Origin: Cyanidioschyzon merolae
Taxonomy: Eukaryota
DNA length: 64,000 nucleotides
Strand: one strand, 5' to 3'
Assembly: GCA_000091205.1 (NCBI GenBank)
Contig: AP006494.2
Shown: one piece after another, positions 28,361 through 62,935 of the stretch
Numbering within the stretch: position 1 is the first letter of the stretch
How the letters are laid out: each line of letters begins with the position of its first letter
Notes under the pieces: model-generated
The model's input: only the letters and a program-made list of their open reading frames with translations
Told to the model about the DNA's origin: nothing
Database searches by the model: none
Program-made: the position numbers and the translations under genes

Positions 28361-28599
28361 AGCGTGCTGCTATACAGAAATCTTTCCTACTGAATCCAGC
28401 CCTGCTGCCTGGTACCTCCTTGATCAGGCACCTTGCTTGTCCAGACCAGAGCCAGTATTGCACGTGGAGAAGCGCCGCTGCCTGCGCATGAGCGGCAGCG
28501 TGTCACCGGGATCAAGAGTCGCATTGGGGAAGTTGTCGTATTTCACTTTTGTACCAGCCCCGCTGCTGGGGTGTATAGAACGAGATCGAAATCACGATG

Positions 28600-29750
28600 C
28601 AAAGTATCGTAGAGATCGTGGATGAACTGCGTGTGGAGTACATGATCTTTACTGAACAGTACATGGAGGGCTGCATTCTTCCTCCAGATCAGTCATAGTA
28701 CAGTACGCACGTAGTTTGGGAACAATGAAAAAAAAGTAGATGCGCTCTGCGCCAAAACCGATATGCTCAAAGCGCCCATGCGGTCAATGGTAGAAAATGA
28801 CGTGTTGGTCATCTTACGGAAAGCAAAATGAGAAGATCATAGCCACCACGGGCGTCTCTGTTTCTCAATAGCTTGTTGATGTGCTCCTGAAATCACTGGG
28901 GTACAGTCACAAACAAATTCTAGGTCACGGACGGTTACGTTCCACCGATATTGCCCCTGGGGAGTTCCTGGAACGTCGCGGTCGCTATGAAGCAGAGGGA
29001 CGTTGGTTTTATTTTCCAGTAGATGAGACTTTCTTTGGACGAAACGGTCCGAGCGTATCTAAGCATTCGAGGTGAGAGGAGCCAACGGTACCGACCATGG
29101 AACTCGTAGAGAACGACGACATCGTCATCTATCCTAACTGGAGTGGATTCATTTTTGGTGGTCTTATTTCCGCTCGTAGAGAAGACGCATACAACAGCAT
29201 TCACTTCTGCGAACCATTACAGACATTTCTGCTAAGGTCTGGTGACTTCCCTCTATAGGACAATGTAGTATTTCACCGTTTAGCATATGTTCAAGCGTAT
29301 GCGGATTCTATCGGGATAGAGCGACTTTTCACTCTTCCGTATTCGCCATGGTTCAACCGCACCAAAGCATGGTCGAGATGGTGCGAAGCCTGCGGAGTGC
29401 TTCGGCGATACAAAAGCACGGAGAGCTGACACACCAGCATATGGCAGAGAGAGTTCGAGGAATCCTCGATATGATGAGTTCATTCAGAGGCAATAAACGC
29501 ATGGAATCGGTGAACCGAGACTCCGGTGCTGGTATTCATACCAGACCATGTGCGGTGCTCCAGAAAAGACCTGAGGAGCTGACGCAAGTCCGCTTGTGCG
29601 GCAGCCTCTCAGACCCGAAACACCCAAGGAGAAGCTGAGACCGGTGGCGCGGGGCCGGATAAAAAACGTCCGGAGGCACCTCTGGGTGGATATTAATGTA
29701 CCCGACATGGTAGGCAGACATTTTTTGTTTCATTCACGACGTATGCGTGT
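28600..29750 (+). mobile_element. Short degenerate copy of the TnpB/Fanzor-like element family; RuvC-III region decayed to NKRMESVNRDSGAGIHTRPCAV (29498-29563)
   Basis: DNA and peptide similarity to the 35.9-37.35 kb copy: the 5' segment ...ctgaacagtacatggagg..., the RGRYEAE...PVDETFFG block and the RuvC-III region. Ends about 0.5 kb upstream of the AGC kinase start. Confidence 0.4.
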
Positions 29751-30236
29751 GTACGATCGGATTCATCGACCTGTCCGTTTCTCTAACTTCAACCTATTCG
29801 GCGCAGCGTTTCAGCTCGTGCGAAACAAGCACTCCAACAATGACCGTATACATATTCTTCGCTATGCTTCTTATCCCTAAATCCATTTTGTCATCAGCAT
29901 ATGCAACAGTTGCATTGAAAAATAGGTTTCCTGGAAACAAATCGTCGATGAACGACGCGCTCACCAGTCGCTGCACATGGGGTTCCGCCTGCGTGCCTGC
30001 CGCACCAGGGCGATCTCGCCGCCCGCGGGATCTCGGAAGCATGCGTGCGCGGATCGCATGCGTGCGCGGATCGCATCCATGCAGCGCATGTTCGCCGCCG
30101 TTCATTCGATCGCCAGCGGTGTCGAGAAGCCCTCATGCGTGTGCGTGCGCGCATGCATGCATGCGCTTCTGGAAGCTCGTCTGCGTGAAGCGTTCGTTAT
30201 CTTCTACAGCGAGGACTGGGGCTGCTCGAGTTTGCT

Positions 30237-33200
30237 TTGATGGCTAGTGCGGCTGGAAAGAATCAACGAGCCCCTCATTCTTTAGGTAGAGCAGAGGTAG
30301 TTCCTGTAACTGGCACGGCCGGTCGTGTTCCCGTGCCGCAACCTGGACAGGATGCGAGACCGCCTGTAGAGCACCGTGACTCCCCGGCGCGTTACCCCTG
30401 GGTCGGGCCTGCATCGCGTCCCGCTGCTGGGGGTCGTATGGCGCAAGCGGCACAACCACCAAAGCCTAATATGGACCTCTGCCGCGAGGCACTTCAGCTT
30501 CGTATTCTGCGGTCGCACGTGGCGCTCTGCAGTGGCTGGGTCGAGGCTAAGAAAAGTTCGGAGCCTGTTCCGGTGCCTACACGCCCGTTACCGCGGGATT
30601 CATCGGGTTCGCTTTCAGTGACTTCGGCGGTGAGTGAGCGAACTCCCTCACAGGGAGACGACGAGAAGGTAGATAGACACAAGTTACGACGCGAGTTTTC
30701 ATCTCCAGATCTGGGTGAGTTCAATAACCTCTCAGTTGAACAGCGGAGTGTGCCTCATCGACCACTGCTTCCCGAGTTTGCACACGCGGGGAGCAGAAAG
30801 CTGCAAAGCGCGCGACAGCAAGGAGACTCCGGCGGGGTAGCGATAGCGTCCGTACAATCGTCAACGTCGGACGGCTCGCAGGCGAGCGTCGATGCAGCGA
30901 GCCACTCGGAGCAGGAAGCATCCCCGAGCCCAGCAGAGCGTCGACCGCATGAATTCGACCATACGCAGCGGGACCAAGCCATAACAAAAACATCAAAAAA
31001 TGAGACTTCTCGGCAAGCGGTTTCCAAAATGGGCACCAAGCCCGCTGCGTCAACGGGTCGCGGGGGGACCCCGCCAGCACCCTCGCACAGGGAGAAGGGT
31101 GCCGAACGGGACAAAGGCCGCGTAGCAAAGACGTTTTCCAAACTGCTGATCCCGCGGAAATTGTCGCTGGAATCACTTGCGAAGAAGATGACCTTTGGTC
31201 TGGTACGAAAGAAACCTCAGCGTGAGCCGTGGCAACTGCTTTGGGCTGAGGTTCGTGCCGGTTTGCTCATCTTCTACCAGTGCGATAAGGCAAAATCACG
31301 AGGAATGCCCTGTCCATATGCCATTGTTCCTCTGCTTGGATGTACAGTTTACAGTCGAACGGTGGATCTGTGCCGCTCAGAAAAGGAGCAGGGTGCCTGT
31401 GCGATTACATATCAGGCCGGTGCAGGCGTTTCGAGTTCCTCTGGTACAGATTCGTCTGTGGCGAGTGAATGCCCATGCAGATCCGCATATGATGCGGTCT
31501 CCCAGTACTATGCTCGAGCCGGAAAATCCGGCCAATCTGGTAATGATACGAACGACGATGGGCCGCTCGTTCTCCAGTTGGAGCCGAATTCCGAATTTCT
31601 CCATCGATCGAACGAAACCTCGCACAATCCCCAATTCCGTTCCATTCGAATGCGATTCCAGACCGTGGAGGAGCTCTTCCACTGGCATCATGTGCTCTCT
31701 CTATATTCGTCACATCGCGTGGTCACACGTGCAGACTTTGATCTCATTTGCCTGTTAGGACGGGGTGCGTTCGGACGGGTCGCCCTCGCTCGAGACCTTC
31801 ACGGCTCGGGAGCGTTAGTCAGCATTAAGTTTATCGACAAACGCATGATTTTTAGCAGCCGCGACAAACTGCGGCGTATGGTGGATGAGCGCCTCATCCT
31901 CCAAGCTGTCACAGGGAAACCGTATTTTGTCCGACTTTTGTACGCTTTTGAAACTGGCGACTCGCTTTGCATGGTCAATGATTTTTGCGAGGGAGGTGAC
32001 CTGTTCCACTTCCTTTCAGCGTTTGCAGTGTATCGCGAACGGCAGTACCGCGCGCGGGAAGAGGCGGGCGAAAAAATCGACTGGGATCGCTTTCGTCGCA
32101 TTCGGCGATCGTTGCCATTGCCGGTAGCGCGCTTTATCGCAGCTGAGATCCTTGCCGCGCTGGAATTCCTGCATCGCGCGGATATCGTGTACAGAGACTT
32201 GAAACCGGAGAACGTTCTAATCGACAATCAAGGGCACATTTGTTTAACGGATTTCGGTCTGGCGCGCGTTCTTGAAGCCGTTCCAGCACATGCTGGCTCT
32301 GCTGCTACATTGAGCGGCGACGGTGACCTGGACGCCGCCCACCATATCAAGCCGGGTCGCCACGCAATATCCGACGTCTCGTCTCCATCGTCTTCGTCTT
32401 CATCGACGTCGTCGTCGACAACAGCAAGCCCGGACAATTCTTTCGCAGCAGCCCTGGATGGCACCGCCAACGACGACGACGACGACAATGCTGCACCCGA
32501 AGGTAAGCACCCCAGCAGCGGCAACGGCAACGAGACGGCATATGTGCGTCAACGAGCGTCGTCGTTCTGTGGAACCAAATCGTATATCTCACCGGAAATG
32601 CTCAAGACACGGGCTCGTCTGCTGCATGGATACGGCTTCTCCGTCGACATCTGGGCGTATGGAGTGCTCCTCTATGACATGCTGGTTGGCAGACCACCGT
32701 TTTATTCCAGCGATCGGGAGCGCAGCTTTGCGCTTACGATGACGGCGCGTCTGAGTATCCCAGACTTTGTGGATGAGACGAGCGCGGACTTCCTCATGCG
32801 TTTGCTGGAGAAGAACGAACGAAAGCGAATCGGTTGCCGTTCTGCGTTTGCGACCGATTTCGACGAGATCAAACGGCACCCGTTCTTTGCGGGAATCGAC
32901 TGGAACCTGGTGGAACAGCGCAGATTGCCAGTTCCCCAGGAGATTATGGATGTGCTCCAACTGGGCCCCGACGCGGCACAGAAGGCGAACGTCGACCCGT
33001 CCAGCGTCGAATGGATTGTGCGTAACTTTGATCGCCGCTTCACTGAAAGTGATATGGACTCGCTCATCGCCGCCCTGAACCGCTCATTCGATGAGTCCTC
33101 GCACCCGCTCGGTGTTGGTAGTGCAGTACAGGTGAGTACCAAACAGAGCGATCCAAGTGCCGCACGGCGTAACCGAGCCGGCAGCATTCCCGGCTTTATG

Positions 33201-33278
33201 TTTACGTATGAGGTTGCCGCAACCGGTGGAGCGCCCCTGAGCCGAGTGCGCACCGCTGACTCGAAAGCAGCTGCGTGA
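30237..33278 (+). CDS. AGC-family Ser/Thr protein kinase, 1013 aa, with long N-terminal low-complexity region, a roughly 110-aa insert between DFG and APE, an AGC C-terminal extension and hydrophobic motif (FMFTYEV)
   Basis: LGRGAFGRVALARD...VSIKFIDK...HRADIVYRDLKPENVLIDNQGHICLTDFGLAR...GTKSYISPEML...HPFFAGIDWNLV. Confidence 0.85.
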   Translation: MMASAAGKNQRAPHSLGRAEVVPVTGTAGRVPVPQPGQDARPPVEHRDSPARYPWVGPASRPAAGGRMAQAAQPPKPNMDLCREALQLRILRSHVALCSGWVEAKKSSEPVPVPTRPLPRDSSGSLSVTSAVSERTPSQGDDEKVDRHKLRREFSSPDLGEFNNLSVEQRSVPHRPLLPEFAHAGSRKLQSARQQGDSGGVAIASVQSSTSDGSQASVDAASHSEQEASPSPAERRPHEFDHTQRDQAITKTSKNETSRQAVSKMGTKPAASTGRGGTPPAPSHREKGAERDKGRVAKTFSKLLIPRKLSLESLAKKMTFGLVRKKPQREPWQLLWAEVRAGLLIFYQCDKAKSRGMPCPYAIVPLLGCTVYSRTVDLCRSEKEQGACAITYQAGAGVSSSSGTDSSVASECPCRSAYDAVSQYYARAGKSGQSGNDTNDDGPLVLQLEPNSEFLHRSNETSHNPQFRSIRMRFQTVEELFHWHHVLSLYSSHRVVTRADFDLICLLGRGAFGRVALARDLHGSGALVSIKFIDKRMIFSSRDKLRRMVDERLILQAVTGKPYFVRLLYAFETGDSLCMVNDFCEGGDLFHFLSAFAVYRERQYRAREEAGEKIDWDRFRRIRRSLPLPVARFIAAEILAALEFLHRADIVYRDLKPENVLIDNQGHICLTDFGLARVLEAVPAHAGSAATLSGDGDLDAAHHIKPGRHAISDVSSPSSSSSSTSSSTTASPDNSFAAALDGTANDDDDDNAAPEGKHPSSGNGNETAYVRQRASSFCGTKSYISPEMLKTRARLLHGYGFSVDIWAYGVLLYDMLVGRPPFYSSDRERSFALTMTARLSIPDFVDETSADFLMRLLEKNERKRIGCRSAFATDFDEIKRHPFFAGIDWNLVEQRRLPVPQEIMDVLQLGPDAAQKANVDPSSVEWIVRNFDRRFTESDMDSLIAALNRSFDESSHPLGVGSAVQVSTKQSDPSAARRNRAGSIPGFMFTYEVAATGGAPLSRVRTADSKAAA

Positions 33279-33550
33279 TCGACTTGTGCAGCGCTCTCGA
33301 TCCAAACTTGTTTCTATGTTTTTAGCCCCGTGATGTAAACACACCTGGTAGCCCGTGACGCCATCTAAAACCGCTAGTAGAACACAGCGCAAGCTTTCGT
33401 TCTAGGGGGAATTCCAGGCACGCTGGTTTGTCGCAAGCGCTTGATGCGGCTTCGCTTTGTACGCAGCCGCCGGCTCAGAGCGTCTGCGTTACCGGAATGG
33501 AGAAGAGAACGCTATCGATGCCCAGAGGGAAGAGACTTTACTGTTTCCGT

Positions 33551-33764
33551 CGATGCTTCCGTTTTTACCAGCTCCGTGCCAAAAACTTCCCCAGAACAAT
33601 AAAGGTGTGATCACTCTGACGACTTGCTGAGAACCGCGCCCCTTGCAGGCGCTCGGCGATGCTTCCGTTTTTACCAGCTCCGTGCCAAAAACTTCCCCAG
33701 AACCATAAAGGTGTGATCACTCTGACGACTTGCTGAGAACCGCGCCCCTTGCAGGCGCTCGGCG
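33551..33764. repeat. Tandem duplication, about 107-bp unit x2, in the 3' flank of the AGC kinase gene
   Basis: gatgcttccgtttttaccagctccgtgccaaaaacttccccagaac[a/c]ataaaggtgtgatcactctgacgacttgctgagaaccgcgccccttgcaggcgctcggcg occurs twice head-to-tail with 1 mismatch. Confidence 0.85.
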
Positions 33765-35929
33765 CTGCGCTAGCTGTGCAGTCGCCGTCGACATACCGTA
33801 AGAGGAAGGCGTGGCCATGCCTACACGGGCTGCGCTTCCAGTCTCATCGCCGCGGTACCAGCATGACCTCGTCAACGGCACCGTTGCTACCGAGCGCGCT
33901 CAACGTCATCTCAGCGCTTTCTATGAGTGCACCAAGACAGAGCGGCAGCGATAGGCAATGAGACGGACCTTTCCATGAGGTACAGCACACGGTGCTGTGC
34001 TGCGCGTGGCCTGCATGCTCCCCAAAGACATAACTGGACAGAGGGTTTTTAGCGGCGCCAAGGTACAGCAAAGCACAGCAAAACGAGGCAAGGTACGGCT
34101 CTGTTGCAATGATGCCGAGCGAGCCGCGAAACGCGCTGGGAACGGTACAGTAGGCAAGCGGCGCGCGTGCTCCCCTATGCCCTAGTTATCGTAAAGTAGA
34201 ACACTGAAGTACTCGCTGTGTTCCCGCTTTTCAATTTTTCCAGAGTTGGTCTAGAAATACGGCATAGAAACTCGAAGTTCAGGAATGAATTCGAATGGAC
34301 GACTATGCAAATGTAGAATTCTTGAATGTTTTCTCGGAGTATTGTGTACGATGCTTTGCCACCGGAATTTGTTACGTAATCGTCATGATTCGCGTCGCAC
34401 TCGAACCCGGATTCGTAAAGTAACCGATATCGTTATGCGATGCTTGCGTACTAGCGTCGACTCATGTCCTGGCTGTAGGTGCAGCATGCCCAAATCAAGC
34501 ATTGTATGGAATTCGATCCTTCTGTTGCAAGGCCACTCGAGGCTGAAGCATCTTGCGCCGCCTAGTAGACGAGAAAAGCGAAAATGCTCGACTTCTTCTG
34601 TGAGCGACTTTATGACCTACTCATGCTGATAGCGTACTGAACGTCTCATGCCGAATACTCGATTCTGCTCGAAATACAAACGCTTTACACTGTCTGGTTA
34701 TTGATGAAATCGGAAATGAGCGCAGTATAACCATGCCTCTCACAGGGTATGTCGGTTGGGATCGTCTGTCTTCGGTTTGCACGGAAAATGGTCTTCGAAT
34801 TGCAGTTCAGTGAGCCTAGCGGTCAGTGGCTGTAGAGCGTGCATGTCGCTTCGCCTGAAACGAGCCTAAACGAATCGGAACTCCTCGACTTGATGTCTAA
34901 CCTGAATTTTCCTTACGATATGTGTTTAATCATGGATAACATCGTGTTCCATAAATCCTCTATCGAACGGAAATGCGCACACTTTCGCATATGCAGCGGA
35001 CCGGGCACCTGCCTTGGGGATCGCCTCGAAGAAGTCCTTGATCGTAGGACGCGGCACTCTGTGCGGATACAGAGGAAAACAGCGCTGGGAGCCTTGCGTT
35101 CACGTCAACCGCATGTACCGAGCGATGAAGCGCGCTGTCGTGCGACTCTGGGCGGCGCTCGGAGCCGCAGAAGGTCTAGTGCATCCCTGGGAGCACTTGA
35201 TCGCAGTCACTTGTCACCGCTGGAAAGCGCGCATGGAGACCGTCTGCATAGTAGGCGAAACAGGTGAACGAAACCTGGATCAGAACTTTTGCCTGTGCGA
35301 GGAACCCCCAGAGAACAACCGGAAGCGGCGGAAACGGGCTTTCATGCTGCGATCAGTATCCACGACTGATTCCAACAGAATTTGCGGGATAGGTAGGACC
35401 GGCGTATTCGAAGCGCGAGACAAGGGAGAGGAAAATGAACCGGTCGCAGAAAAAGCTTGCCATGGCTGGTGTTGATGACAATGCTGAGCGAGCCATACGT
35501 CAGTGTGTGTGTGTGTGCGCTCGTGCTATGTGAGAGCGCCCGTCCCACGGTATTCCGACATGAGTGTACGGCATGCAGGACGATACCGGAATGTTTTTTT
35601 CTGCGGTGAGAGGTCGACGCATCGATCCAGGGATCTGTAGCGAGTGCGATGCTCCTGCGTATCGATCGATGCAAACAGTGCGCGGGCCCAGTGCCCCCAG
35701 TGCTCTACGAACCATAGACCAGACTTCACTTTGTGAATAATGGTTTGTTCGCACGACCTTCCCAAGTATAGGTCCTACTGTGAGTGTCTAGAATGGCGCT
35801 AGTCGTAGCAGCAGCACTGCGGGCCGCTGAATGCAGACAGATCGGTTTCACGAGTCCCCGTCTGGCGCCCGCTCGAACGTCGATTCTCATCAGGGAAACG
35901 GATCACTACGGGCGCTATGAGATCGGCCT

Positions 35930-37350
35930 CAGAAGTTTTTGTCTTTCAACTCAGTTTCGTGGCAAGTCTGCTGCGGTGTGCAGTAGGCGGTTGAAATCTC
36001 CATGGAATGTACTGTACCGATCGTAGACGAATCGCCAATAGAATATGTTGTTTGCTGAACAGTGCACGGAGGGTTTCATTTCTCCATCGGATCAGTGATA
36101 CCACAATACCCATATGGTTGAGGAACACTGAACGAAGCAAGTACACGTGGTCTGCATTAAAACAACCGATATTCTCGAAGACTGCGACCTGTTAGTGGTA
36201 TAAACCAACCCACCGGACACGTTCCGGAAAGCGAAATGAACAATAGTAGGCAGCACGGGCGCCGCTTTTCTCAATTGCCTGTTCGCGTGATCCTGAAAAC
36301 ACTGGGATGCAGTCGGAATAAACTTCTGGTTCACGAACGGACATCTTCCACCAAAATCGGAACGAGAGCGTTCTCAGAATGTCGCGGTCGGTATGAAGCA
36401 GAGCATCATCGGTTTGTTTTACCGGTCGATGAGACTCGCTTCGGAAAAAGACGGTCCGAGCGTATATGGGTATTCGTGGCGGGGGCGCCCCCTTCTATGT
36501 ACAATCAAATTCGATGAGGACGATGACATCAACTGTCCTAGATGTAGTGGATTCTAGTGGCGGCCGCAGTTTCGCTCGTAGGCAAGGCTCACACAACAGC
36601 ATCTACATGCTTAAATCATTGAAGACATTTGCCTCTGACGTTTGATCACGTTCGTCCATTGGATATCGAGGCATCTCACTCTTCGCTTTACGTAACTGCA
36701 TTTGCTGCGCGTGCCGGAGGTAGAGCCGGTCTTTTCTTCCCTGTACGCCTAGTGCCTTAACTCCATCGACGGAGCGTTTCCATCGTGAAACGTAATGATC
36801 GCTCTAGTAGGCGAATCGTTGAAGCGTACATCACACGGTGACACGTTGACACATACCGTCTTTTACCAGCAAGTGCTTCTCCCTTTAGGATGGTTCTCAC
36901 CCAGGCACATAAATAAGTGCGTTCATTTTAGAAAAATAAGGGATGAGCTCGGACGTACATTTCAAAAGGTCGAGTTTGAGCAGAGGCAGTGGAGCGCTTC
37001 GGCTATAGAAAACTACGAAGCGCTGACCGAAGAGCAAATGGAAAGGAGGGCGAAAGCTCGTGGATTGCTTGCACCAGTGAGTACAACGAATGATGGCAAG
37101 AAACGTATGGAGTTCGTGAACCGAGACTTTAACGCCGCCATCAATATCAGGAGATGTGCCGTGGTGGAGCATAGACCTCCAGAGTGGACAAGAAGGTGTT
37201 TTGTTGGACAACCTCCCAAAGTCGAACTATATGAGAAAAAATTTGAAGCAGTAGAAGGTGGCCTGTCCCAAAAGACTGCAAGGCATCTGCACGTCAGTTG
37301 GCTACGTTTCCTCCAAGGCGCGTTGCCGCTACTACTGTGCACCGCTGGCG
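35930..37350 (+). mobile_element. Short copy of the TnpB/Fanzor-like element family with the best-preserved 3' module (ORF 36795-37436 carries intact RuvC-III KKRMEFVNRDFNAAINIRRCAV at 37122-37148); 5' part has an HTH-like ORF (36007-36195) and a middle ORF (36236-36517) in different frames
   Basis: RDFNAAINI exactly fits the TnpB/Fanzor RuvC-III consensus. The 5' end aligns with the 62.9 kb and 28.6 kb copies. The 3' end aligns with 10.8-11.2 kb of the long copy. It abuts the ChaN-like gene start. Confidence 0.45.
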
Positions 37351-37365
37351 ACGTTCGACTTTTGA

Positions 37366-38781
37366 ATGGCTATTGGCTGCATGGAGCAAACTCGAAAACG
37401 ACGGCGGACGGGATGTTTTCATACCCTCGGCTTTGACTGGAGACAAGCGCTCGCGACTGCCTTTATGCCACCAGAACCACGAGGCTTTTCCGCAGCCGCG
37501 TGCCAACGCGCAACACGTTGGCAGACGGTACAGCCTCGAGCTCGTCGACGGACGCTTTCAGAGCGTCGGCTACAAATGCTATACGTCAGCCGTCGAGAGT
37601 TTCTGTGGCAACTCGCAGCGGGCGCGGCAACGCTGGGCTTTCACAGTGTGAAAAAACCTGTGGCGCCAGCGGCTTCAAACTCGGCACCACCGGCGCCCGT
37701 GAATGGGCGCTTGGCACCACTGGGTGCTATCTTCGACACGATGATCGGCTCTTTTCTACCACCGCGACCTGAGCGACTCTTATCGAGGCGAATTCGGCAT
37801 AAAGGAGCACGCTCTGTTCTCTTGGTCGGGGAGACACACACGGACCGACAACACCATCGGGTGCAACTGGCGTTGCTGGACTCGTTTGTGAAGCATGTTC
37901 GAGGTCAGCGGAATGAGTCGATTGCAGGAGCTCCAATTGCGATCGGCATGGAGCATTTCTATCGGCAGCATCAAGTGCATCTGGATCGGTACATTGCGGG
38001 CAAGATTGAGCTACGACAGTTACTCGCTATTACTCGTTTCGAACTTACCTTTGGGTATAGCGCGCAACTTTGGCAGGATATTTTGGAGTATGCACGGGAA
38101 AACCGTATTCAGGTTGTTGGTCTCAATACTCCGTTCGAATTGGTGCAGCTGGTTGCCCACTACGGCCTGGATCACTTACCAGAACGTTTGTATGAAGTGC
38201 TTCCTCGCGATATGGATGTGCATGGTAATGCTGCACACCGTGAGCGTTTTATTCAGAGGATGAAAGCGTTGGGGGTGGAAGCGCATGGTCCACTCATTAA
38301 CGACGAGGCAGCACTGCAGCGAATGTATGAATCGCAGGTGCTCTGGGACGAATACATGAGCGAATCGGCGGCCTTGTGGCTAGAGCGGAACCCCCGCGGT
38401 CACTTGTGTATTTTTGCGGGTAATGGTCACGTCGAAGGCCGTGTTGGGATTCCAGACCGCCTGACTCGTCGTTCTGGGAGGCCGACCTTCACCGTCGTGC
38501 CGTATACGGTGCCGTTCCAATCAGACGGCTGGCCCGATATACCGCATCCCGGCAACAGAGATGTCGGAGATTGGCTCTGGTACCTGCCTGTAGGATCTGG
38601 GGGTGCCGAATCTGACGAATCGGACCCCAAGTCGCAGCGACAGCAACGGTTCGGGGAGCGTTTCGGCTATCGAATCGCACGCAGTACCGAGTCCGACATG
38701 AGACTGATGGGGCGAGGCGCAGCCAGAACCATTCAGAGAGGTACGCAGACGAAATCTGTGGACGAGCCGGACTGGGTATGA
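37366..38781 (+). CDS. ChaN/DUF399 (Tiki-superfamily, haem-binding-uptake-like) protein, 471 aa, with N-terminal R-rich extension followed by a twin-arginine motif; true start may be an internal Met (37465 or 37579)
   Basis: VLLVGETHTDRQHH and FAGNGHVEGRVGIP match the two GxxH signature blocks of the ChaN/Tiki fold. SRREFLWQLAAGAATLGF is a textbook Tat (S/T-R-R-x-F-L) signal. Confidence 0.55.
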   Translation: MAIGCMEQTRKRRRTGCFHTLGFDWRQALATAFMPPEPRGFSAAACQRATRWQTVQPRARRRTLSERRLQMLYVSRREFLWQLAAGAATLGFHSVKKPVAPAASNSAPPAPVNGRLAPLGAIFDTMIGSFLPPRPERLLSRRIRHKGARSVLLVGETHTDRQHHRVQLALLDSFVKHVRGQRNESIAGAPIAIGMEHFYRQHQVHLDRYIAGKIELRQLLAITRFELTFGYSAQLWQDILEYARENRIQVVGLNTPFELVQLVAHYGLDHLPERLYEVLPRDMDVHGNAAHRERFIQRMKALGVEAHGPLINDEAALQRMYESQVLWDEYMSESAALWLERNPRGHLCIFAGNGHVEGRVGIPDRLTRRSGRPTFTVVPYTVPFQSDGWPDIPHPGNRDVGDWLWYLPVGSGGAESDESDPKSQRQQRFGERFGYRIARSTESDMRLMGRGAARTIQRGTQTKSVDEPDWV

Positions 38782-41688: not shown

Positions 41689-44600
41689 CTACAGTCCAGA
41701 ACGCGACGTCTGTGACGCACTGTCCGAGCTCGACGCCACCGGGTGACGCCTGCTGGGGACGCTACTGCTCCGACCGCTGGTGGCGCTTCGTGCTCGACTA
41801 ACTCGAGCCATGTCGAGGTTCATCGCCTCGAGACTGTCCAGATTACGAAAGGAGAAATCGGAAAAAGCGGGATCTGCCAAGGTAAGCACGCATTGCGATT
41901 CACTCGATGAGGGTCTGTTTGCCTTGTAGCGTGCTCGTCGGCCAGATTTGGCAAGGTTCACATTCGGATCGCTATAACTCGCTTCTGGTGGCCTTTCCGA
42001 AGACGAAACCCCAGCGCTCGCCTGAACTGGTGCGCTGCCCTCGCGTCCTATATTGGAACGCGCTAGCGTAGCTCGTCGAAAAGGATCCACGGCGTTGTTG
42101 TTGTTGTTGTTGAAATCGTCGTCGTCGTCGTCGTCGTCGTCGTTCTCGATATCGCCCTCACTACACAGGTTCGAGTCGCTACTTGAATCTTCGAATAAAA
42201 GCATACCGTCGCTGGTATTCCAAACATTGCGCGTGGGTGTTGTTGCCGCAACAACTGCTACGCTCGTCGCGTCGCTACCACGCAAACGCACATTGGATGA
42301 ACGTAGAACGCTTGGACTGGTGCATACCGATGCCGATCGTTCTCGATTCTGTTCATCGGCGGACGTGCTGACCGACGGATCCCGTTCTGTTTCCGAAAGC
42401 CAGCCGCGTGTAGGCGCTCGTCGACGCAAACAATGCTGCAAGAGCTGCTCCCGGGAGCGTTGCCGTCGATTGCGTAGGGTCCGCATGTCGACGCGTCGCC
42501 ACCCTGTTTCCGTCGAGCAAGTCGCAGACGATGACCAGCTCGGTACTTCCGTCTGTTTCCAGTCCATTTCCGGATGCGAAGTTTCCGACTGAGTTCCAGC
42601 TGGCTCCGAAGGCATCGCCGAAGCCGCTGCACCAGTGTTCCCCGAGACTCCCACGGCATGAGGCGAATCCGGTACCGCGACGATTTGCGTCGCTCTACCC
42701 AAAGCGCCGTCGGAGTCAGTGCTTACGTCGCCTGTTCCTGCTATCGACGTCGCCTCTGAGAGCGTCTCCTGCCCCTGAGTGCGCGTCGTGTGAGCGATGG
42801 AGCAATCGGCGGATATCCGTTGCGTCTTGTCTGCATCGAGCTCATGCTCGGGTACCGTGTACGAGAGAGACCATCCCGGGCGGTGCCGATAGAGCCCGTC
42901 AGCGCATGGCGCATCTCGGACCTGATCCTCAATGCCTTCTGCCGAATCTGTTGCCTGGCTCGATGTTGTGATGCCGCTCACCACGATCTGGTCGCTTAGG
43001 GACGAGTTCTCCGCGTTCACTGCATGCAGCAACCGCTGCGGCATAGTTTCCGCTCCCGAACGGGACAAAGGCTCCATGGATACCCCTGCAAGCGCCGTAC
43101 CATCGCTCCAGCGACACGCTCGCTCTGCAACCAATACCGACTCGTTGTGTTCGCATGTCGTATCTATAGCACTTTGCTCTCGGACAGACGATGAAGATAA
43201 TACAGGGCGCTCGGCATCATGTGAAACGGCAGGCAAAGCCGGGATCCCCAGATCGAGCGCTCCCGATGCAGCACACGGCGACGAGCGCGGTGCCGGCTCT
43301 CGTATGCCGCCAGGCGCCGCTGGTGCTCTGGAGACACCGTAGCAGCACGCGCTGCTCGAGGTCGCAAGTGGCTCTGTGGAACAAACTTTCCCATATGTAG
43401 AACAGTGCATGCCGCACGCCGCAGTGCCCTCATCGGCGCTACGCCAGTCGCCATCCGTGGGATTTTCCCGCGGCCAGCAATCCGCCGTAGCGCACCAGCG
43501 CATCATGACCTTCTGTCCACCCTGTCGCATTTCAAGATGCGCTGCTACGTCACTCCAGCGAGGCTCCGAAGCGTGCACAGACTGTCCACCCTGTCGCATT
43601 TCAGGATGCGCTGCTACGTCACTCCAGCGAGGCTCCGAAGCGTGCAGAGCCTCGGATGACGCGATCGCTGCGGTGCGTGTCTCGGGGACACGCATCCGTG
43701 ACGACGACGACAACGACAACGGCACGGACGCAACATGCGACTTCGAGGCCGTCACCAGCAACGGCAATGCTTCTGCTCGTTCTACGTCGCCCAGGCCGTG
43801 CTCGCTAAGCGTTCTCATTAGTTTCTGGGTGCTCTCGTCGTCAGGAGAGAGCGATCCGACCGCTTTGCGCGACGAAAAGTAGCTGGTGTCATCGGCGGCA
43901 GCAAACTGGGGTACGAAAGCCGGTGGCTGATTCCTTACATGCTCAAAATCAACATCGCGGAAAAAGGGATGGGCTTTCACCTCTGCTGCACCACGAGCAC
44001 CCAGTCTTTTGGAGGGATCCGGCTCCAAAAGACGCTGAATGAGGTCACGTGCCTCGGCACTCATGGCCTCATCGACATCGTCAGGCCACTGGATTCGACC
44101 CGACAATATGTTCGAGAAGATGCCACGCACAGAGCTCGCGTGAAAGGCAGGGATGCCCACGAGGAGCTCAAAGAGGACAACACCGAGAGCCCACCAGTCC
44201 ACAGCGAAACCGTGACCCGTTCCCAGCAGCAGCTCGGGAGCCAAATAGTCGGGAGTGCCCAGCGGCGGCTCCACAGGTGCGACCACCGTGGTGCCGCCAA
44301 CCGGGCTACCCGATTGACTCTCGGTTGCCAACGTCTGAGGTGACGGAGAACGGACACCTCTGACTCCATTCGCCCACAAGTGCCCTGTGTGGCTCTCAAA
44401 CGGACCGGCATACCCAGATCCGCCAGTGCTCGCAGCAGCCGAAAACTGACCGCGTGCATCCGACGCTGTTAGGGTGTTTTGTCGCCCGGCTGTGCGTGTG
44501 CCAGCTTGTACGGAACTCGTGGTCGTGTCCACAAGACGCATATCCACGTCACGCTGCAGGGGTACTGTGGACGAGCCTCGCTGGGTCCTGACCTCGGAAC

Positions 44601-47600: not shown

Positions 47601-49599
47601 CGCGCTGCGCTTCCGATGTAGGTTCCGTTCGCTCGTAATACGCTGCAGCATACGAGTCTTCCACTGCGCGCTGTGCTCCTGCTGCAGGTTCAGCGACATG
47701 GTTGCTCAGGCTCGACTTGAGCGATATCCGGCCTGCCGCTACTGTAGCAGTTGACAGCTGCGTGCCCGGCTCTATAAAACGCTCATCCGCGGTTCCCGAT
47801 GACCACGACGAGGCATGAGCAGCGTCAGCCGGATCTATGTGCTCCGAACCGAAACCCTTCCCAGTCGACTGAGACATTCGCGTTCGGCGGGTGCCGCTCC
47901 CGCGCTGGCTGTTGCTCTCCGCCCGAAATTCAATGCGCTCAGCGGCTGCTTCGAGGAAACGCGTCAGCCTCGATAGCGTGAAGAGGAGGTGAATCACCGG
48001 CGAGGAGCGATGCGTCCACGAGACAAAGCTTACATGCATCCGCATTCGTTGCAGTTCATTCACGTACTCATGCAGATTGCCGCTGAATGCTATTACGGTT
48101 GAATGGCCCCGTGATACAAACGTTTCCGCCAATAACGCATCAGCGGACGTTGCCAACACGGCGGATGCAATATCCATCATACGGCGAACAGCTTTGCTGA
48201 GCTCGGGTGTCTCCTGCCCCTGCTGAAGTTCTGCTTCGCATTGTGCCATAAACTGCGCCAGCTCGTGATCAGTCTCCTTCTTGATCGCCTGTAACCGTCC
48301 ACGGATAGTTGACACGTTACCAGAGACAGCAAAATAACCCAAAGCACCCGCTAATAAGGCAGAATACGCATTGCCCCCCGAGGCGGCCGCAGTTGCAGGT
48401 GCCGCACCGGTGCCGATCGGGCTCGCCCATGACGCTGTGCGGTGTAGGCGTCTTGTAGTGCGTCGTCCCGCTTGTGTATGGCCCTCCATAAGACGCACCT
48501 GGTGCCACTGGAGCGTCGGCGTTGTAGCCTGGTCCGATGGACCGAGCCATCCGGTGCCGGCAGTGGACCACGATGTTGCCGCAACGCCGCCAGCGCCGAT
48601 CATTCGCCTCCAAGCGGATGCCACTGGGATTTCCCATCGATTTTGCGGCACTTTTTCATGCTCTTGCCGATGATGATAATGGTACTGATGGTGCTGATGA
48701 GCATCATGCTCGCTCTCACGATATTGTCGTCGGTGCGAATACCGATAGCGTAGGCGATGCGGGTCGCATCCCGCCAGTGACGTTGACTCGGGTGGCTCCA
48801 TCCGAAGGAGCATCACGTCTTGGTTGCTGCGCAGTTCGGTCGGAAGCGATGCACTCACGATGTGAGCGTCAGCGGGCTCAGAGTCGCTACTGGGCGCTTC
48901 GCAGCGTGCATCACTCACCAGTAATCGCTGTGACTTGGCAAACGCCTCCGATCGACGTCTTTCCCCAGAGGCTTTGCGTCGTTCGATCCGGGTAGTCTGA
49001 TCGCTCATCCGTGCCCTTCCAGTAGACTCCGCTTCGTCATCATCATCATCATCATCATCACCGTCACCATCGTGATCAGCCAGTTGTTGCAGCCGAGCGA
49101 AAACGGGAACGTCTCCGGTCGCCGCTGGGAACCCATCCGCTTCAACCGCTGCCTGCAGTGCTGCCACGTTGTCAACGCTTACAGGAGTCGAGCTCGCGTG
49201 CTTTATTGTCTCGTTAGAGAGCATCCAACTATCTTCGCGGCTTTCGGCGCCAGCGAGATAACCTTCCAAGCCGCTCGAGTCTGAGCTCCAGCCCGAGTTC
49301 CGTCTGAGGTCGAGCGCGTAGCGCTCCGCCAAGAGCTGCGCTGTTGTCTGTGGTCGTTCAACTGGAACGCTTACACCGACAGCGGTCAGCGCGCTCTGTA
49401 GCGACTGAACCTGGCGCTCGGTGGCGGCATCGCTTACCGGGTCAGCGACAGGCACGTCGCTTGCCTGCGCACCTGTGTCTACGCAAGCGCACTCACTACC
49501 TGGGACGTGCACCGGCTCATCAACGTGCGCACGCTCGCTCTCGTTCGCACCTGCTCGCATCCAAAGACGCGATGACGTCCACGATCGCAGGTTCCACAC
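41689..49599 (-). CDS. Giant (2636 aa) Greatwall/Rim15/MAST-like AGC kinase: central kinase domain with a roughly 270-aa insertion between DFG and GTPDYLAPE, an AGC C-tail, an N-terminal Cys-cluster and extensive low-complexity regions
   Basis: [22 protein letters not shown]...[14 protein letters not shown]...[26 protein letters not shown]...[long insert]...[39 protein letters not shown]...[12 protein letters not shown]. The activation-segment insert is the Greatwall/Rim15 hallmark. Confidence 0.75.
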
Positions 49600-49993
49600 A
49601 AAATAGTGACAGCAAGCACCTGCTCACGGCTTTTCGTACGGTGTGGCCGCCGCAGAAGCCCCGCTCGCCGGCGATGGCAACACACCGGAAACGACACTGG
49701 CCCCCGTGTTTCTCTGGAGTGCTGCTGCTGAGACCCCAATGGGTTCACAGCCAATACCAGCTGTTACAGCGTCCGCGTATTCGGTGTTCGCTGTCTCGAG
49801 CTGGCAGCGCAGTGCGCGAGGAGTACCAGATGGGCCCGTTTCAAGCTGCCCTGCGAGTGCCACGACGGTATTGTCCAGGTTGTCGTGAGGCACTGGGATG
49901 GACAGATTGGGAAATGGGACAGATTTGCCATCTGAGTGACTGCGGCGGCGGCGGCGGCGGCGGCGGGATCTCGACTTTGCGCATCGATCTGCG

Positions 49994-51927
49994 ATCTGGG
50001 ATTTTTTCTCAGATGTCAAAAAGTGCCCAGTGATCAGGGATCCCAGATTGCGGGATGGGTAGGTATTCGTTATCGAAAAAGCGTCCATGATGCTTCACGA
50101 TACCTCCAAGTTCCATTACTTGTGCTTCCGCTAGGATGCACTGGTCGTTTCGTACGTTCTATCGAGCGCTAAGTGTCTGCTTTGCTGCACCCTGCTGAAG
50201 CGTCTACACCGACAGAGCAGATGCTGCGCGGAGACAGCGCGGCGTTGCTGTACCACTGATGACTTCGGCTCGAGGCGCGGTCCATCTGATAAGGGATCAG
50301 GATTCATGATCATTCTGGGATCCAGCGATCTGCGTAGACAGACGCACTGGCTGCGGCAGCGCGAAGCGATATGCTACGAGATAATCGTCATATTGGCGAC
50401 GCCCAGACGCAGTCTAAGTGTACCTGGTCTCGGAATAAACCGCGTTGCCGACGAGTTACTCAGATCTCAATAGAGTACTAGGCACTGGGTGCAGCATGGA
50501 GCACCAGCCTGGCAGACTTGTCCGGCTCGCAGGACATTCCGCCTGGAAGGTAAACGTTCGAAATATGGAAACATTTCCCCCCTTTGAACGTTTACCGTAG
50601 AGGGGAAAGAACATTTTATCCAGTTGGTAGTTAGTCCTTGGTTTATGATCCGTTTTGTACATGGTGCGCTCGAGATGCGCACACCCATATCTGGCAGGCA
50701 TGCGACCTAGCATGTGCATCTCGCCGCTGAGGGGAAACGCGAACCTGATCATGAGCGTATTGCTCTGACTAACAAGATGTATTTGCGTTCAAGGCACAAG
50801 AGAGTATGTTTTTCTCAGTTCAATTGTGTGTCAGCTCTCAAGTGAGTGTATTCGAGCGATTTTTCGCGGGTTGTAGCAGAAGCTTTCAAAGTGCGTTGTT
50901 TTGAAAAATAGTCGAGATAAATCGGGAAAAATATGGTTGTAGAAGTGGAGGATCCTGGAGGGCCCCGTATCGCCGGCTGCCGCAAAAAAAAACCGAAGAA
51001 CAGTGCCAACCAAAGAGGAACAACACAGGACCAGGAAGCAAGGCGGCGAGGGCCGACACCAAAACCTGCAGGGAAAACGACAGTACGACGAGATGGAAGT
51101 GAAAGCCTGTCTTTTACGCTGCGTCAAGGATCCGTGCAGGGCAAAGTTGCAAGAGGGCATCAGAAACCGTGTCGATTCGTACTCCAGGAGTATTGGAAAG
51201 GCCTGTTCAGGAATGATGCATGTGGTGAAGGTGATGTGTCGCGACGTGACGGACATCCAAACCGTCGAGGTTCCGGACGAGATTTTCGGCAAGACCTTCA
51301 TTCGTCACCTGATGGTTGGAACAGGGGAAACGTCGAGGAGAAATGAGCGAGTTCGTGCCCTCCACGAAAATTACACCAAATACCGCTCCAACGATACTCG
51401 ATACACGGGAGACTCGCGTATTTACGAATACGGGGCGATCAAGTACCTCACGAACCTGAAGAACCACGTGACCATGAACCTCAAAGGCTTCATGATACGC
51501 TCCGTCTTTGCCCTCGACCCGGAGCTGTCTCGCATAGGGATACGGGCCATCATCGACGGCATCAAGAACGATAGTCGGAATGAACAGGAGATCGAATTTG
51601 CCGACAAGAAGACATCACGCAGAGGAAAGAATGAACCTTCTGGAATCCCTGCGGCTATTCAGGAGCACCGTGCAGACTCGGGGCTTGTCAACCCAGCGGA
51701 TAAAGTATCAGAGATGAAAAAGATGACGAAAGATTTTATCCCCGCGTCCAGCGCTATTCCGTGTTTTTGGAGCGAGAACTCGAACGCCAGGCGGAGATGG
51801 AGCTCACTAGGGGAATACGTGAAGATTCGGAGAAGCGGAAGGCTTTCGTAATGGGTAAGCGCTTCAACGTCATTCCATTATGCAACAGCAAGTAGCACTT
51901 TGTGCGAATCGACGCTAGCGTCCTTGA
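49994..51927 (+). mobile_element. Second, 3'-truncated copy of the long TnpB/Fanzor-like element: 5' region (one 96-bp unit, same hairpin) plus intact N-terminal ORF 51003-51851; lacks the RuvC-bearing part
   Basis: About 98% nucleotide identity to 7806-9936. The 282-aa ORF differs from its paralogue at 6 residues. Similarity stops abruptly at 51927. Confidence 0.6.
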
Positions 51928-52487
51928 ATGCACAAAACGACCAGTGCATCCGAGAACAGGTAATGGAACATGGAGGTAGGGCGCATCATGATGGACGCTT
52001 TCCCAAATGCTTGTACCCAGCTCGCAATCCTGGGTCCCTGGTCAACGTAAACGTTTTTTGAACAAAAATGCCTGAAGCAGCTGCATCGGGACTGCAATGC
52101 TGCCAGTATCGACCTTCGACAGTTGATAACGGAACTGGAGGGAAATGAGCACTCACATGAAATACACGCGAAATCTGGTATGGATGATCCCGAAGAGCGT
52201 GTCAAACTTTGAGGTTTCCAGTCGAATTTGAGAATATGTCATACTTTATGCTACCCTGGATGTATCATCGTGTACGGCACGTTCGTGGTCGACACCCCGT
52301 GTAACGCCGCACGTCGATACAACATAGCCCTTATTCTCCTCTAGACCAGTCACTGGCGGTGTACCTGTTTTGACACACGACCAAATCGAGTGTCTTACGC
52401 CTTAGTTCAAGCTCCACGGCACCAAGCGTAGTTCGTAGGCGGCCAAGTAGACAGACATGAACTGGACGCTGGCTCGCCGCGCTTGAC

Positions 52488-54275: not shown

Positions 54276-54632
54276 GCGGTATGCTCATGGACTCGTGGAG
54301 CGACGGAAGCGCCACCAGTGACCGCAACGTCTCGAGGGCGGTTTCGTTGGCTGCTTTCGCTGCGCTCGCCATTCTCCAGGACTCGACAACGACGACGACG
54401 ACGACGACGACGACGGGGAGAGCGGCTCGGTATTCACAACGGTTATAGTGATGGATCCGAGCTCTACGTCGTCGTCATCGAATATCTTCAGGTCGTCGGA
54501 AAGCAGCGAATCACTGCGCAGTGCGGGCAGCGGCTTTGGCTCAGGGATCAGCGGTCGTGGCGGCATTGCCTGAACGAGAGAGTTCCTCGTTGGCGTTGGA
54601 GGCAGCGCCAGCCGTGCTTCTTCAGGGCCGCT

Positions 54633-61072: not shown

Positions 61073-61510
61073 TCACGATTCCTCCAAGTTGATTGCACTC
61101 CCAAACTTCCCGTATAGTCGCTTCTTGAGTTCAGACATGGTTCTAATGACCGACGCCCGCTGCTCCCGATGTTTTTCTAGGGAATCGTTTAATCGACTCC
61201 TCCGAATCGTTAGCTGGTGCTCCACAAACGTTTGCGGGACTCGAAAGAACGCACTACCGACACGCAGCTCTGCGGTCGCAAGCGAATCGCTTGGCGTGTC
61301 CTCAGTGCCCCTTTCCTCTGAAGCGTCTGTTTCTGGGTTCTCCATATCGTCGCCGAGACCGAGCATGAGCTCCTCTTCGGCGTCGTCCAGACCCTGGAGC
61401 TCACTCTCCTCGACTGCGATCCGTGCGCTAAGCTCGTTGCGTTCGTGGAGCAAACGATTGAACGTGCAGATTTCTTGGAGATCATCGGAAGTGACATCCA
61501 CTTTTGCCAT
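61073..61510 (-). CDS. PFDN4: Prefoldin subunit 4 (beta-type prefoldin), 145 aa
   Basis: Coiled-coil / beta-hairpin / coiled-coil layout. The C-terminal KKRLYGKFGSAINLEES matches PFDN4 (KVQLYAKFGSNINLEADES). The N-terminal DDLQEICTFNRL matches EDQQKINKFARN. Confidence 0.8.
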   Translation of the reverse strand: MAKVDVTSDDLQEICTFNRLLHERNELSARIAVEESELQGLDDAEEELMLGLGDDMENPETDASEERGTEDTPSDSLATAELRVGSAFFRVPQTFVEHQLTIRRSRLNDSLEKHREQRASVIRTMSELKKRLYGKFGSAINLEES

Positions 61511-61539
61511 GTTCTCTTAAAGACTCGGTATAGGCACAG

Positions 61540-62935
61540 TGGGTGCGTCGTCCTTCGCCCCAGGAACCGGCTCGGTACGCACGCTGTCGCCCGTTGCGAG
61601 CACAAGTGCAAACCCAGCTGCACAACGCGTATCACTGCGTTCTGCGTTTGCGCACACCGGGGATGCAGCGCAGCCGCTCGAGCACTCGGACGTACCACTG
61701 TGAGAGTCGTCTGCCTGGACGCAGTCGAAAGCGTCCCGTCGGATGAATATATGTTCTTGCTTGTCTCCCATCTTCTTCTTCGTGGTCGTATGCTCTTCTT
61801 TGCTCCATAATCGGAGACAAGAGGATTTTCCGGTTTTTCGGGCATCTGGGGGTGACGGCGCGCCAGGATCCTCTGCTTGCATGTCCATACCTATTACTTG
61901 GATTTTGTATTTCTTCAAAATAAACGCACTTGTTAATGCCCTTAGATAAGGACCTTTTCGGAGGCAGGAGGACCTGCGGAAGAAAGACGACTTGTGCTCG
62001 CGGTTTGTCCCCGCGGGCTGCACGCTTCAGCGATTCCTCCAGTGAAGCGATCATTATGTGTCACAACAGAGAACAAGCCTTCGATGGGGATGAACCACGG
62101 AGCGTACGGAGGAACCACAAGGAGGTCTAGCACCCAACAGAATCCTCAAAAGCTCGAATGCAAGGGAAACAGTGAGATGCCACGCTGTCCAATAGAGGAA
62201 CGTCGCCAGACGTCAGGGGTAAAGTCGTCAATCCTTTGATAAACTGGGTGCTATTATGTGAGCCTTCTCCACTGGGGAAACTGATGTCGCCACTTGAATC
62301 CACTGCAGCTAGAGCAGATGATGATGTCGTCGTTCTCATCGGGTTCGACTGTGCATACGACGGGCTCCCTCTCCACGAATACCCATATACGCTCCCACGT
62401 TTCGTCCGAAGAAAGTCCTATCAACAGAAAAAAGAAACCGACGATCCTGTGCTTCTCACAGATCGCGACGCTCGATAAACCCTCTCGTTGGGATTTCGGC
62501 AGCAGATAGCCGAGTGTGAACTAGGACTCTCTTCTTGCGACTGTGCCCCTGTGCGTTTCGTAGGACATGAACTAGCCGTAGAGAAACAGAGATTCCGGTG
62601 GTGGCTGCAATCATCGCTTTTATTTTCCGCAAGGTGAACAAAGAGTCGGTTTTGTACCACTGGCCGCAAACAGTGTTTAAGAATATCGGATTCTAACGCG
62701 GACCGCATACACTCCTCTCTTTCAGCGTTCCGCAACCATTTGAAGACTGTGGTATGACTGACCTGAAGGAGGAATGCAGTATTCCTTGCACTGTTCAGTA
62801 AACAATAGTTCTTATAGACGATTCGTCTACGATCTATACAATACATTGCATTGTGATTTCGACCGCCTACGATACACCGCTACGAGGAGGGCACGGTCGA
62901 GTGAAACAAACCTGAGTCAAAAGAATATATAGGTT
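61540..62935 (-). mobile_element. Short copy of the TnpB/Fanzor-like element family in inverted orientation (HTH-like ORF 62421-62846, MIASLEESLKR ORF 61632-62054); RuvC-III region decayed; 3' end abuts the prefoldin-4 start
   Basis: The 5' end ...ggtttgtttcactcgaccgtg...gcggtgtatcgtaggcggtcgaaat... (reverse complement) aligns with 35.93-36.0 kb. The ORFs MYCIDRRRIVYKNYCLLNSAR / MIASLEESLKRAARGD parallel MYCTDRRRIANRICCLLNSAR / MIALVGESLKRTSHGD. Confidence 0.4.

Follow-up and report, generated by a model that had tools for sequence, protein, structure and literature searches.

Probable remnants of a composite transposase-Fanzor1 transposon in gene-upstream spacers of Cyanidioschyzon merolae

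A stretch of 64,000 nucleotides from chromosome 12 of Cyanidioschyzon merolae 10D (contig AP006494.2; hereafter the window), a red alga with an intron-poor and very compact genome, contains three short decayed elements (copies A, B and C). These copies probably belong to an old, dead family that arose from a composite transposon and now lies in the spacers upstream of genes. The impression that they point at gene starts would then be a by-product of the spacer class and not an orientation link.

Composition of the short copies

When the window was compared with itself using BLAST, three homologous copies were observed where the initial annotation had placed them (A-B, 68.6 % identity over 673 bp, E-value 1.6e-61; A-C, 68.4 % over 807 bp, 6e-73; B-C, 68.3 % over 980 bp, 4e-88). 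Their ends were then refined by multiple alignment with 13 further copies (Table 1). These came from a metagenome scan in which 44 loci yielded 13 further classifiable insertion sites and 3 unclassifiable ones, so that a total of 16 unique insertion sites (3 in the window and 13 from metagenome contigs) was available. The copies are 75-82 % identical to their own consensus, and every reading frame of A, B and C is disrupted. An RGRYEAE..PVDETxFG block, reported earlier as common to the three copies, was found in all of them. The helix-turn-helix (HTH)-like open reading frame (ORF) said to be shared was recovered in C and, at 36007-36126, in B, and its frame is broken in A. The 3' RuvC-III module was found in two of the copies, A (29372-29602) and B (36945-37208), and is absent from C. 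The description of the short copies as decaying, internally deleted elements is thus supported.

A majority consensus of three and then of six copies restored a single long reading frame over the common 5' ~950 bp. When the six-copy consensus was stitched across three frame changes, it matched Pfam DDE_3 (83 bits, E-value 2.5e-23; cutoff 28.6) and the NCBIfam IS630 transposase model (125.5 bits, E-value 2.8e-36; cutoff 100; model positions 14-275 of 299). Six copies were required, as the three-copy consensus gave only a weak IS630 match, and the uncorrected ORF fragments from either kind of copy, long or short, matched nothing in Pfam. No single genomic copy is intact. The catalytic motifs of the consensus are FSVDETCF (D), LLLDNVVFH (D) and PPYAPWFNPIE (E), with ~35 residues from the second D to the E, and the predicted D, D, E triad has the spacing of the IS630/Tc1-mariner group (34-35 residues). 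Two HTH-like regions were observed at the N-terminus, where HTH_33 (E-value 0.0012) and HTH_Tnp_Tc3_2 (E-value 0.011) matched, both under the Pfam cutoffs. The 5' part had been taken for an HTH of Fanzor, and this did not hold. It is an IS630/Tc1-mariner-type transposase pseudogene according to the DDE_3 and IS630 models, in which the HTH-like ORF is the predicted DNA-binding N-terminus and the PVDETxFG block the predicted first catalytic aspartate of a Tc1/mariner/IS630-type transposase.

The 3' part was compared with the longer Fanzor1 elements of the window, namely a long copy near 8 kb and a truncated second copy near 50 kb. The conceptual translation of the long copy matches intact metagenome proteins of 586-752 aa with the motifs GADPGNTN, VDEFRTSYTHHELG and FVNRDFNAAINIR; the long copy itself is frameshifted and 52 % identical to the 752-aa protein P0075. 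A profile built from P0075 and other intact homologues matched SpuFz1, the Fanzor1 of S. punctatus (PDB 8GKH), with an E-value of 6.2e-5 over profile positions 272-643. This match spans RuvC-I, -II and -III (DPG, DEFRTS and NRD motifs). A phmmer search of PDB with the single protein P0075 found no match, and the profile search succeeded.

When intact P0075 was used in tblastn, residues 665-752 were found in copy B (68 % identity, E-value 2e-29) and residues 673-752 in copy A. Of the split RuvC domain, A and B keep only the part past RuvC-II (HELG...) through RuvC-III and C keeps none; judged by these motifs, the short copies are Fanzor remnants, not Fanzor genes. In copy A the transposase pseudogene runs straight into the C-terminal remnant of Fanzor1 (29372-29602, GNKRMESVNRD), and the remnant of the 3' untranslated region (UTR) reaches the 3' terminal motif of the family, TTTTTTGTTTCATTCAC. 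The 3' UTR of copy B terminates in GTTCGACTTTTGAA, and its 3' region belongs to the subtype seen in the intact Fanzor1 genes of metagenome loci L014 and L015. In copy C, neither the RuvC-III tail nor the 3' end was found by tblastn and profile searches of the downstream DNA. A candidate decayed tail (61713-61569, E-value 5e-8) was rejected as a self-match, since it vanished with a profile built without C.

The 5' 950 bp of the short copies has no counterpart in the long copy. Directly after the transposase ORF, eight short copies matched a profile of the region from -220 to +150 around the Fanzor start that was built from four long elements (E-values 1.6e-16 to 4e-6). The unit is therefore ordered as 5' end, transposase, Fanzor upstream region with the first codons, a deletion of ~640 codons, and the last ~90 codons with a 3' UTR of ~150 nt. 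The family consists of a ~1.5 kb unit at 17 or more sites in C. merolae, and nearly all loci span the whole 1.4-1.6-kb unit. As judged from the alignments, this architecture is the standard form of the family and not three separate accidents. In every classified copy with a detectable tail, which is most copies, the tail match begins at P0075 residues ~642-705, and this uniform start argues for one deletion event. The proposal that the short copies are deletion derivatives of the long copy was not borne out, as the deletion sits in the Fanzor gene downstream of the transposase gene.

Position of the copies relative to genes

In the window, copy A lies between the saccharopine-dehydrogenase-like gene (Sacchrp_dh, -) and the kinase gene (+), copy C between the prefoldin gene (-) and the ACT-domain gene (+), the long copy between a cyclin-like gene (-, ATG 7366) and an Erv26/TEX261 gene (12131, +), and the 50-kb copy between a gene for a 2623-aa protein (-) and CML234C (+). 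All four are in divergent spacers (gene <- element -> gene). Copy B, between the kinase (+) and ChaN (+) genes, is in a tandem spacer. Elements are present in four of six divergent spacers of the window and in one of twelve tandem or convergent ones (hypergeometric p about 0.02).

It had been noted that the 3' end of each short copy is followed by a gene on the same strand and that the long copy faces the TEX261-like gene at 12131, and both observations are correct (kinase ATG 30240; annotated ChaN ATG 37366; prefoldin 61073-61510 on the minus strand). In a divergent spacer any orientation points at a same-strand start, so that B alone is informative about orientation in the window. The distances of 20-500 bp given for the three copies did not stand. 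The 3' end is 503 bp from the downstream start in A and ~258 bp in C, and in B it is 0 bp from the annotated ATG and 210 bp from the conserved start. The cases of 20 bp stem from a probably over-extended ChaN annotation and an over-extended end for C. Similar distances were observed on the two sides of the elements in divergent spacers, with ~940 bp (long copy) and 431 bp (50-kb copy) to the downstream start in addition to those of A and C, and 175 bp (A), 377 bp (C) and ~430 bp (long and 50-kb copies, each) from the 5' end to the upstream divergent start.

The flanking genes at the metagenome sites were called as ORFs and judged by length. A codon-usage coding score separated real from shadow ORFs poorly, and Pfam was used instead for doubtful ORFs. 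By this check, L031 was reclassified as tandem-sense instead of convergent because of an LSM gene, and a parvulin gene upstream of L045 was confirmed. Among the 16 unique sites, ten are divergent (one of them, L030, uncertain because the downstream ORF is itself transposase-like), four tandem-sense, two tandem-antisense and none convergent. The 3' side faces a gene start at 13 of the 16 sites, with two clear exceptions (L037 and L046, where the downstream genes, for a CTP synthase and an Rpt ATPase, are on the minus strand), and the 5' side does so at 12 of 16. The bias that holds up concerns both sides of the element: gene-upstream DNA is preferred, and gene 3' ends are avoided. The suggested promoter-proximal preference is thus retained as a bias to promoter-containing intergenic DNA, and it is specific neither to the 3' end (13/16 vs 12/16) nor to one orientation (tandem sites, 4 sense to 2 antisense).

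Taken together, we favor the following history. The ancestor would be a composite DNA transposon in which a gene for an IS630/Tc1-mariner-type DDE transposase lay immediately upstream of a Fanzor1 gene (TnpB-like, RuvC nuclease). A single internal deletion would have removed ~640 Fanzor codons and spared the upstream region and start, the last ~90 codons (RuvC-III) and ~150 nt of 3' UTR. The deleted derivative, with its transposase gene retained, may have multiplied in roughly the same period as the Fanzor-only CMe-1A family, to which the long copy appears to belong, and all copies would afterwards have decayed and become fixed. They would be found by preference in intergenic DNA that contains promoters, chiefly in divergent spacers and not between convergent genes; since either orientation aims the 3' end at a same-strand start in a divergent spacer, the pattern first noticed would follow from the spacer class. 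The bias could be caused by insertion into open promoter chromatin, or by survival of insertions that hit the expendable central part of a bidirectional promoter region, in a genome where there is little other neutral DNA. The host genes would keep their own promoters in the 100-600 bp that remain on each side.

Several observations weigh against this history. A length-weighted background, taken from a small and biased sample, is 33 % divergent, 48 % tandem and 18 % convergent, against which the enrichment has a p of about 0.02-0.08. In five of the ten divergent calls, small genes could be hidden in gaps of at least 1.2 kb, and the metagenome gene calls are imperfect, being ORF-based with a weak codon-usage score (the LSM gene in L031 did change one call). 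A same-strand downstream gene is found at 13 of 15 classifiable sites (binomial p about 0.004), which makes a weak orientation effect possible. As the copies are old and fixed, targeting and selection cannot be separated. No composite with an intact transposase and a full Fanzor was found among the 44 metagenome loci, so that the ancestor is a reconstruction.

The ends of the elements count on the same side. Tc1/mariner/IS630 elements normally have terminal inverted repeats (TIRs) and TA target-site duplications. Inverted-repeat finding and BLAST with a 130-bp inverted repeat of the 50-kb copy revealed no TIRs joining the 5' end (TAGTCTTTCAACTCA...) and the 3' end (...TTTGTTTCACTGAC), whether the copies were taken singly or as the 16-copy alignment. 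TA or TATA is often seen just 5' of the element, and no matching TA was found past the 3' end; the termini are approximate. As the copies are ~20 % decayed, short TIRs could have been lost. TIR-like pieces beside L044 and L027 were rejected, as they are head-to-head fragments of the 5' leader of the long family.

Chance together with compact-genome geometry is an unlikely explanation and, among the alternatives, the one that survives best. Insertion or retention in intergenic DNA would be random, divergent spacers would just be longer, and a small sample would inflate the bias. The expectation of ~33 % divergent by length alone, the sample of 16 sites and the imperfect gene calls are consistent with it, as is the report that a related 253-copy repeat is scattered at random over all chromosomes (Nozaki et al. 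2007, PMC1955436). It does not fit the absence of convergent sites (0/16, when about 3-4 are expected), the 25 of 31 classifiable flanks that face gene starts, or the uneven occupancy of spacer classes in the window.

It was also proposed that the elements donate promoter or 5' UTR sequence. The 3' end of the element, from which TnpB/Fanzor elements transcribe outward to make the guide part of the omega RNA, would drive or start transcription of the downstream same-strand gene, and sense copies would have been retained for this reason. In line with this are the excess of same-strand downstream genes, downstream starts at ~110-260 bp from the 3' end (the LSM gene of L031 at ~113 bp, L023 at ~108 bp and B at 210 bp), the annotated ChaN ATG adjoining B as the sole abutting case, and the transcription reported for Fanzor-type repeats of the C. 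merolae genome (Nozaki et al. 2007, PMC1955436). We consider the proposal quite improbable, as the 5' side of the element meets gene starts nearly as often, sense copies hardly outnumber antisense copies in tandem spacers, the downstream genes of L037 and L046 run the other way, and copy C shows the same arrangement with no 3' tail. A literature search for C. merolae transcription-start data returned nothing usable.

The ChaN start and a related species also speak against donation. The annotated ChaN ATG (37366) reads ACG in one environmental strain (L002). In the relative, the first residues of the ChaN protein are MVWSTRREFLWQL, and their alignment partner in the annotated C. merolae protein is M71 (MLYVSRREFLWQL, 37576). 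Nothing in the relative corresponds to the 70 residues ahead of M71, and M71 directly precedes a twin-arginine-like SRREFLWQL motif. By this alignment, the annotated start is probably 70 codons too early and the true start would be 37576. With the ChaN start corrected, 100-580 bp of non-element DNA lies before the downstream start codons.

The related species (contig L061, 21 kb) is 67-74 % identical in coding DNA and keeps the gene order GDI - LRR - aminotransferase - metallophosphatase - Sacchrp_dh - kinase - ChaN. No match to the transposase, Fanzor or family profile was found over its whole 21 kb. Empty orthologous sites, a check that the initial annotation had asked for, are thus observed for both A and B, and the spacers are 656 bp in the relative vs 4297 bp in C. 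merolae (ChaN-kinase) and 1340 bp vs 1879 bp (kinase-Sacchrp_dh). As the relative has no elements at A and B, the genes do not need them and the insertions are lineage-specific. The C. merolae locus also turned up in several hot-spring-type metagenome assemblies (99.1-99.4 % identity), where A and B are likewise present. Both copies occur in every ~99 %-identical environmental strain examined and are thus fixed, and a search for empty sites among the environmental strains (all with at least 98.5 % protein identity) found none.

The weakest alternative, that the short copies are separately deleted remnants of long Fanzor elements like that at 7.8-11.2 kb with an N-terminal Fanzor HTH as their 5' ORF, could appeal to the Fanzor C-terminal module and 3' UTR common to short and long copies, and is refuted by the identity of the transposase encoded in the 5' 950 bp that the long copy lacks, by the one architecture of all copies and by the common tail start, which point to a single ancestral event followed by amplification.

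Feature coordinates, element ends and other observations

The features of the window are listed in Table 1. When seven ORFs of the window were looked up by exact sequence, six proved to be annotated C. merolae 10D proteins (BAM80815 to BAM80824, with CML234C among them).

Table 1 Coordinates of elements and flanking host genes in the 64,000-nucleotide window
Feature	Position	Strand	Evidence or remark
Short copy A	28535..29737	+	Self-BLAST and multiple alignment; 77 % identical to 16-copy consensus
Copy A transposase pseudogene	~28597-29372	+	Cut just past PYSPWFN(PIE) motif
Short copy B	35938..37366	+	Self-BLAST and multiple alignment; 75 % identical to 16-copy consensus
Copy B transposase pseudogene	36007-36838	+	HTH ORF MYCTDRRRIANR... 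at 36007-36126
Copy B Fanzor1 C-terminal remnant	36945-37208	+	RuvC-III motif GKKRMEFVNRDFNAAINIR
Short copy C	62925-~61768	-	Self-BLAST and multiple alignment
Copy C transposase pseudogene	62846-62011	-	
Copy C Fanzor upstream region and start remnant	~61950-61768	-	Profile match
Long copy, CMe-1A-type Fanzor1 element	7805..11190 (3' end approximate)	+	Self-comparison, tblastn and profile
Long copy 5' leader, three 96-bp tandem repeats	8057-8345	+	
Long copy Fanzor1 pseudogene	9013-11040	+	Several frameshifts/stops; motifs ACDTGNTN, TDEF*ASYIHHELG, FVNRDFNAVIKIR; followed by 3' UTR
Truncated second long-type copy	49989..52057	+	98.9 % identical to 7805-9935; one 96-bp repeat unit vs three
Decayed Fanzor1 fragment	17..679	+	Matches P0075 residues 515-734, 33 % identity
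Saccharopine-dehydrogenase-like gene (BAM80819)	26987..28360	-	Start codon 175 bp from A 5' end
Protein kinase gene (Pkinase)	30240..33278	+	ATG 503 bp past A 3' end
ChaN/Cofac_haem_bdg gene (BAM80821, annotated 471 aa)	37366..38781	+	Annotated ATG overlaps last base of B
Prefoldin subunit gene, 145 aa	61073..61510	-	ATG ~258 bp from end of C
ACT-domain gene	63302..64000	+	ATG 377 bp from C 5' end

We also analyzed the ends of the short family. A similar direct motif is shared by the 5' ~30 bp (...CAATTTTGTTTCAC) and the 3' ~25 bp (...TTTTTTGTTTCACTGAC), for example at 28535-28556 and 29721-29737, and the start of the repeat unit in the long copy (7812-7835, GGGATTTTTTCTCAGATGAC) resembles it. 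From the letters, the ends look like direct and not inverted terminal repeats, an uncommon feature in a DDE transposon.

In TnpB/Fanzor elements, the 3' end encodes an omega RNA. When 13 tails of the short family were folded with RNAalifold, the result was -0.97 kcal/mol, effectively no consensus structure. The consensus tail had a folding z of -2.65 against shuffles and an intact copy a z of -0.77. A candidate terminal hairpin was rejected, as it was not better than shuffled or slid controls. Pair counting lent no support to a structured end either, and Rfam gave no match for the 3' tails. It is conceivable, and in our estimate rather improbable, that the short family keeps both Fanzor ends for roles in cis, with the 3' end serving as transposon end and as a candidate gene for an outward-transcribed omega RNA. 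The CMe-1A Fanzor would then act in trans, and the transcription could also feed same-strand genes. If true, this would be a division of labour between transposase-bearing elements and the CMe-1A family.

As for the long copies, the 2.1-kb stretch 7805-9935 is duplicated at 49989-51925, 42 kb apart. The 98.9 % identity of this pair, compared with a typical ~80 % to the consensus, indicates that the event was recent, whether it was transposition, segmental duplication or gene conversion. The last ~130 bp of the 50-kb copy (51926-52057) repeat its own 5' region in inverted orientation.

Two of the metagenome contigs, L036 and L049, are 95 % identical. In L049 the short copy is cut at profile position ~889 and followed by a 5' leader of the long family (similar to window 7848-8614), and in L036 the copy continues past this cut point. 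By comparison of the two, this looks like an insertion or rearrangement polymorphism between lineages ~5 % apart, hinting at later activity of leader-bearing elements. Directly downstream of the short-family copy in L030, a 394-aa ORF (8671-9855) with the transposase-like motif FVSLDRIPFANNGGPVYGYSNRGRT (cf. FSVDETCFGRNGRSVYGYSRRG) and no Pfam match was observed; its motif suggests that it may be a second, more divergent IS630-like family.

The three short copies lie within 35 kb, and three Fanzor-type copies are found in the same 64 kb, when the short family has ~17-20 detected sites. This local density is several times the genome average implied by published counts and may reflect local hopping while the family was active, or an effect of the choice of window.

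Other regions with repeats or few genes were also recorded. A stretch of 3.3 kb (21246-24573) between the aminotransferase and metallophosphatase genes contains no ORF of at least 150 aa and has no match to the element probes; the relative has a ~2.4-kb gap at the same place (L061 13343-15778). The 2.7-kb spacer that separates copy B from the kinase gene contains a 106-bp tandem repeat in two copies (33548-33768), and a 69-bp tandem repeat in two copies (43513-43652) is inside the 2623-aa ORF (41689-49560, -).

Comparison with known systems

Promoter-region-biased transposons of compact or gene-dense genomes include the P element, Tf1 of S. pombe, mPing, and Hermes in yeast, which are found upstream of genes and rarely at gene 3' ends. 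For these four the bias was shown for new insertions, whereas the short family is known from old, fixed copies, so that selection could explain its pattern equally well.

The result is an ordinary one of modest practical value, and it introduces no new kind of system. It points to a possible transposon class for the C. merolae Fanzor1 family, which makes up ~5 % of a genome usually described as almost transposon-free, and the transposase could be rebuilt from the consensus. The concentration of transposon remnants in bidirectional-promoter spacers is relevant to the choice of neutral integration sites and to promoter definition in C. merolae.

The short-family consensus resembles IS630/Tc1-mariner transposases (PF13358, NF033545) in scoring above both curated cutoffs and in having the D/D/E motifs; its two N-terminal HTH-like regions are candidates that score under the Pfam cutoffs. 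It differs in that neither TIRs nor a TA target duplication, both expected for such elements, was detected.

Nozaki et al. 2007 (PMC1955436) described a 3.2-kb repeat, present in 253 copies and containing a WSV486-like ORF that is truncated, which accounts for ~5 % of the genome, is transcribed and is "distributed randomly", as well as eight transposase-related class II elements ("bacterial-transposase-like") in the C. merolae genome. Bao & Jurka 2013 (PMC3627910) described the C. merolae Fanzor1 family CMe-1A, of TE class unknown, with ~80 % identity to consensus and no TIRs, and listed Fanzor1 in shrimp white spot syndrome virus. We equated CMe-1A with the 253-copy repeat of Nozaki et al. 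2007. Compared by description, the long and 50-kb copies fit CMe-1A (~3 kb, Fanzor1 ORF, no TIRs, ~80 %). The short family shares with CMe-1A the Fanzor upstream region, the C-terminus, the 3' UTR and a similar divergence from consensus, and differs in having a transposase gene where CMe-1A has a ~1.2-kb leader (related to TE-N2_CMe).

Composites of Mariner and Fanzor1 were reported from other organisms, for example PUl-1 and PGv-1 (Bao & Jurka 2013, PMC3627910), and a transposase-Fanzor association for C. merolae was not reported in that paper. Like the proposed ancestor, elements of the PUl-1/PGv-1 type contain a Tc1/mariner DDE transposase gene followed by a Fanzor1 gene in the same orientation. 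The short family differs from them in having only a deleted Fanzor (start region and last ~90 codons), in that no TIR or TA was found and in that all copies are dead. While the Fanzor1 family CMe-1A and transposase-like elements of C. merolae are already published, the link between a DDE transposase and Fanzor1 ends and the spacer-class bias are added here.

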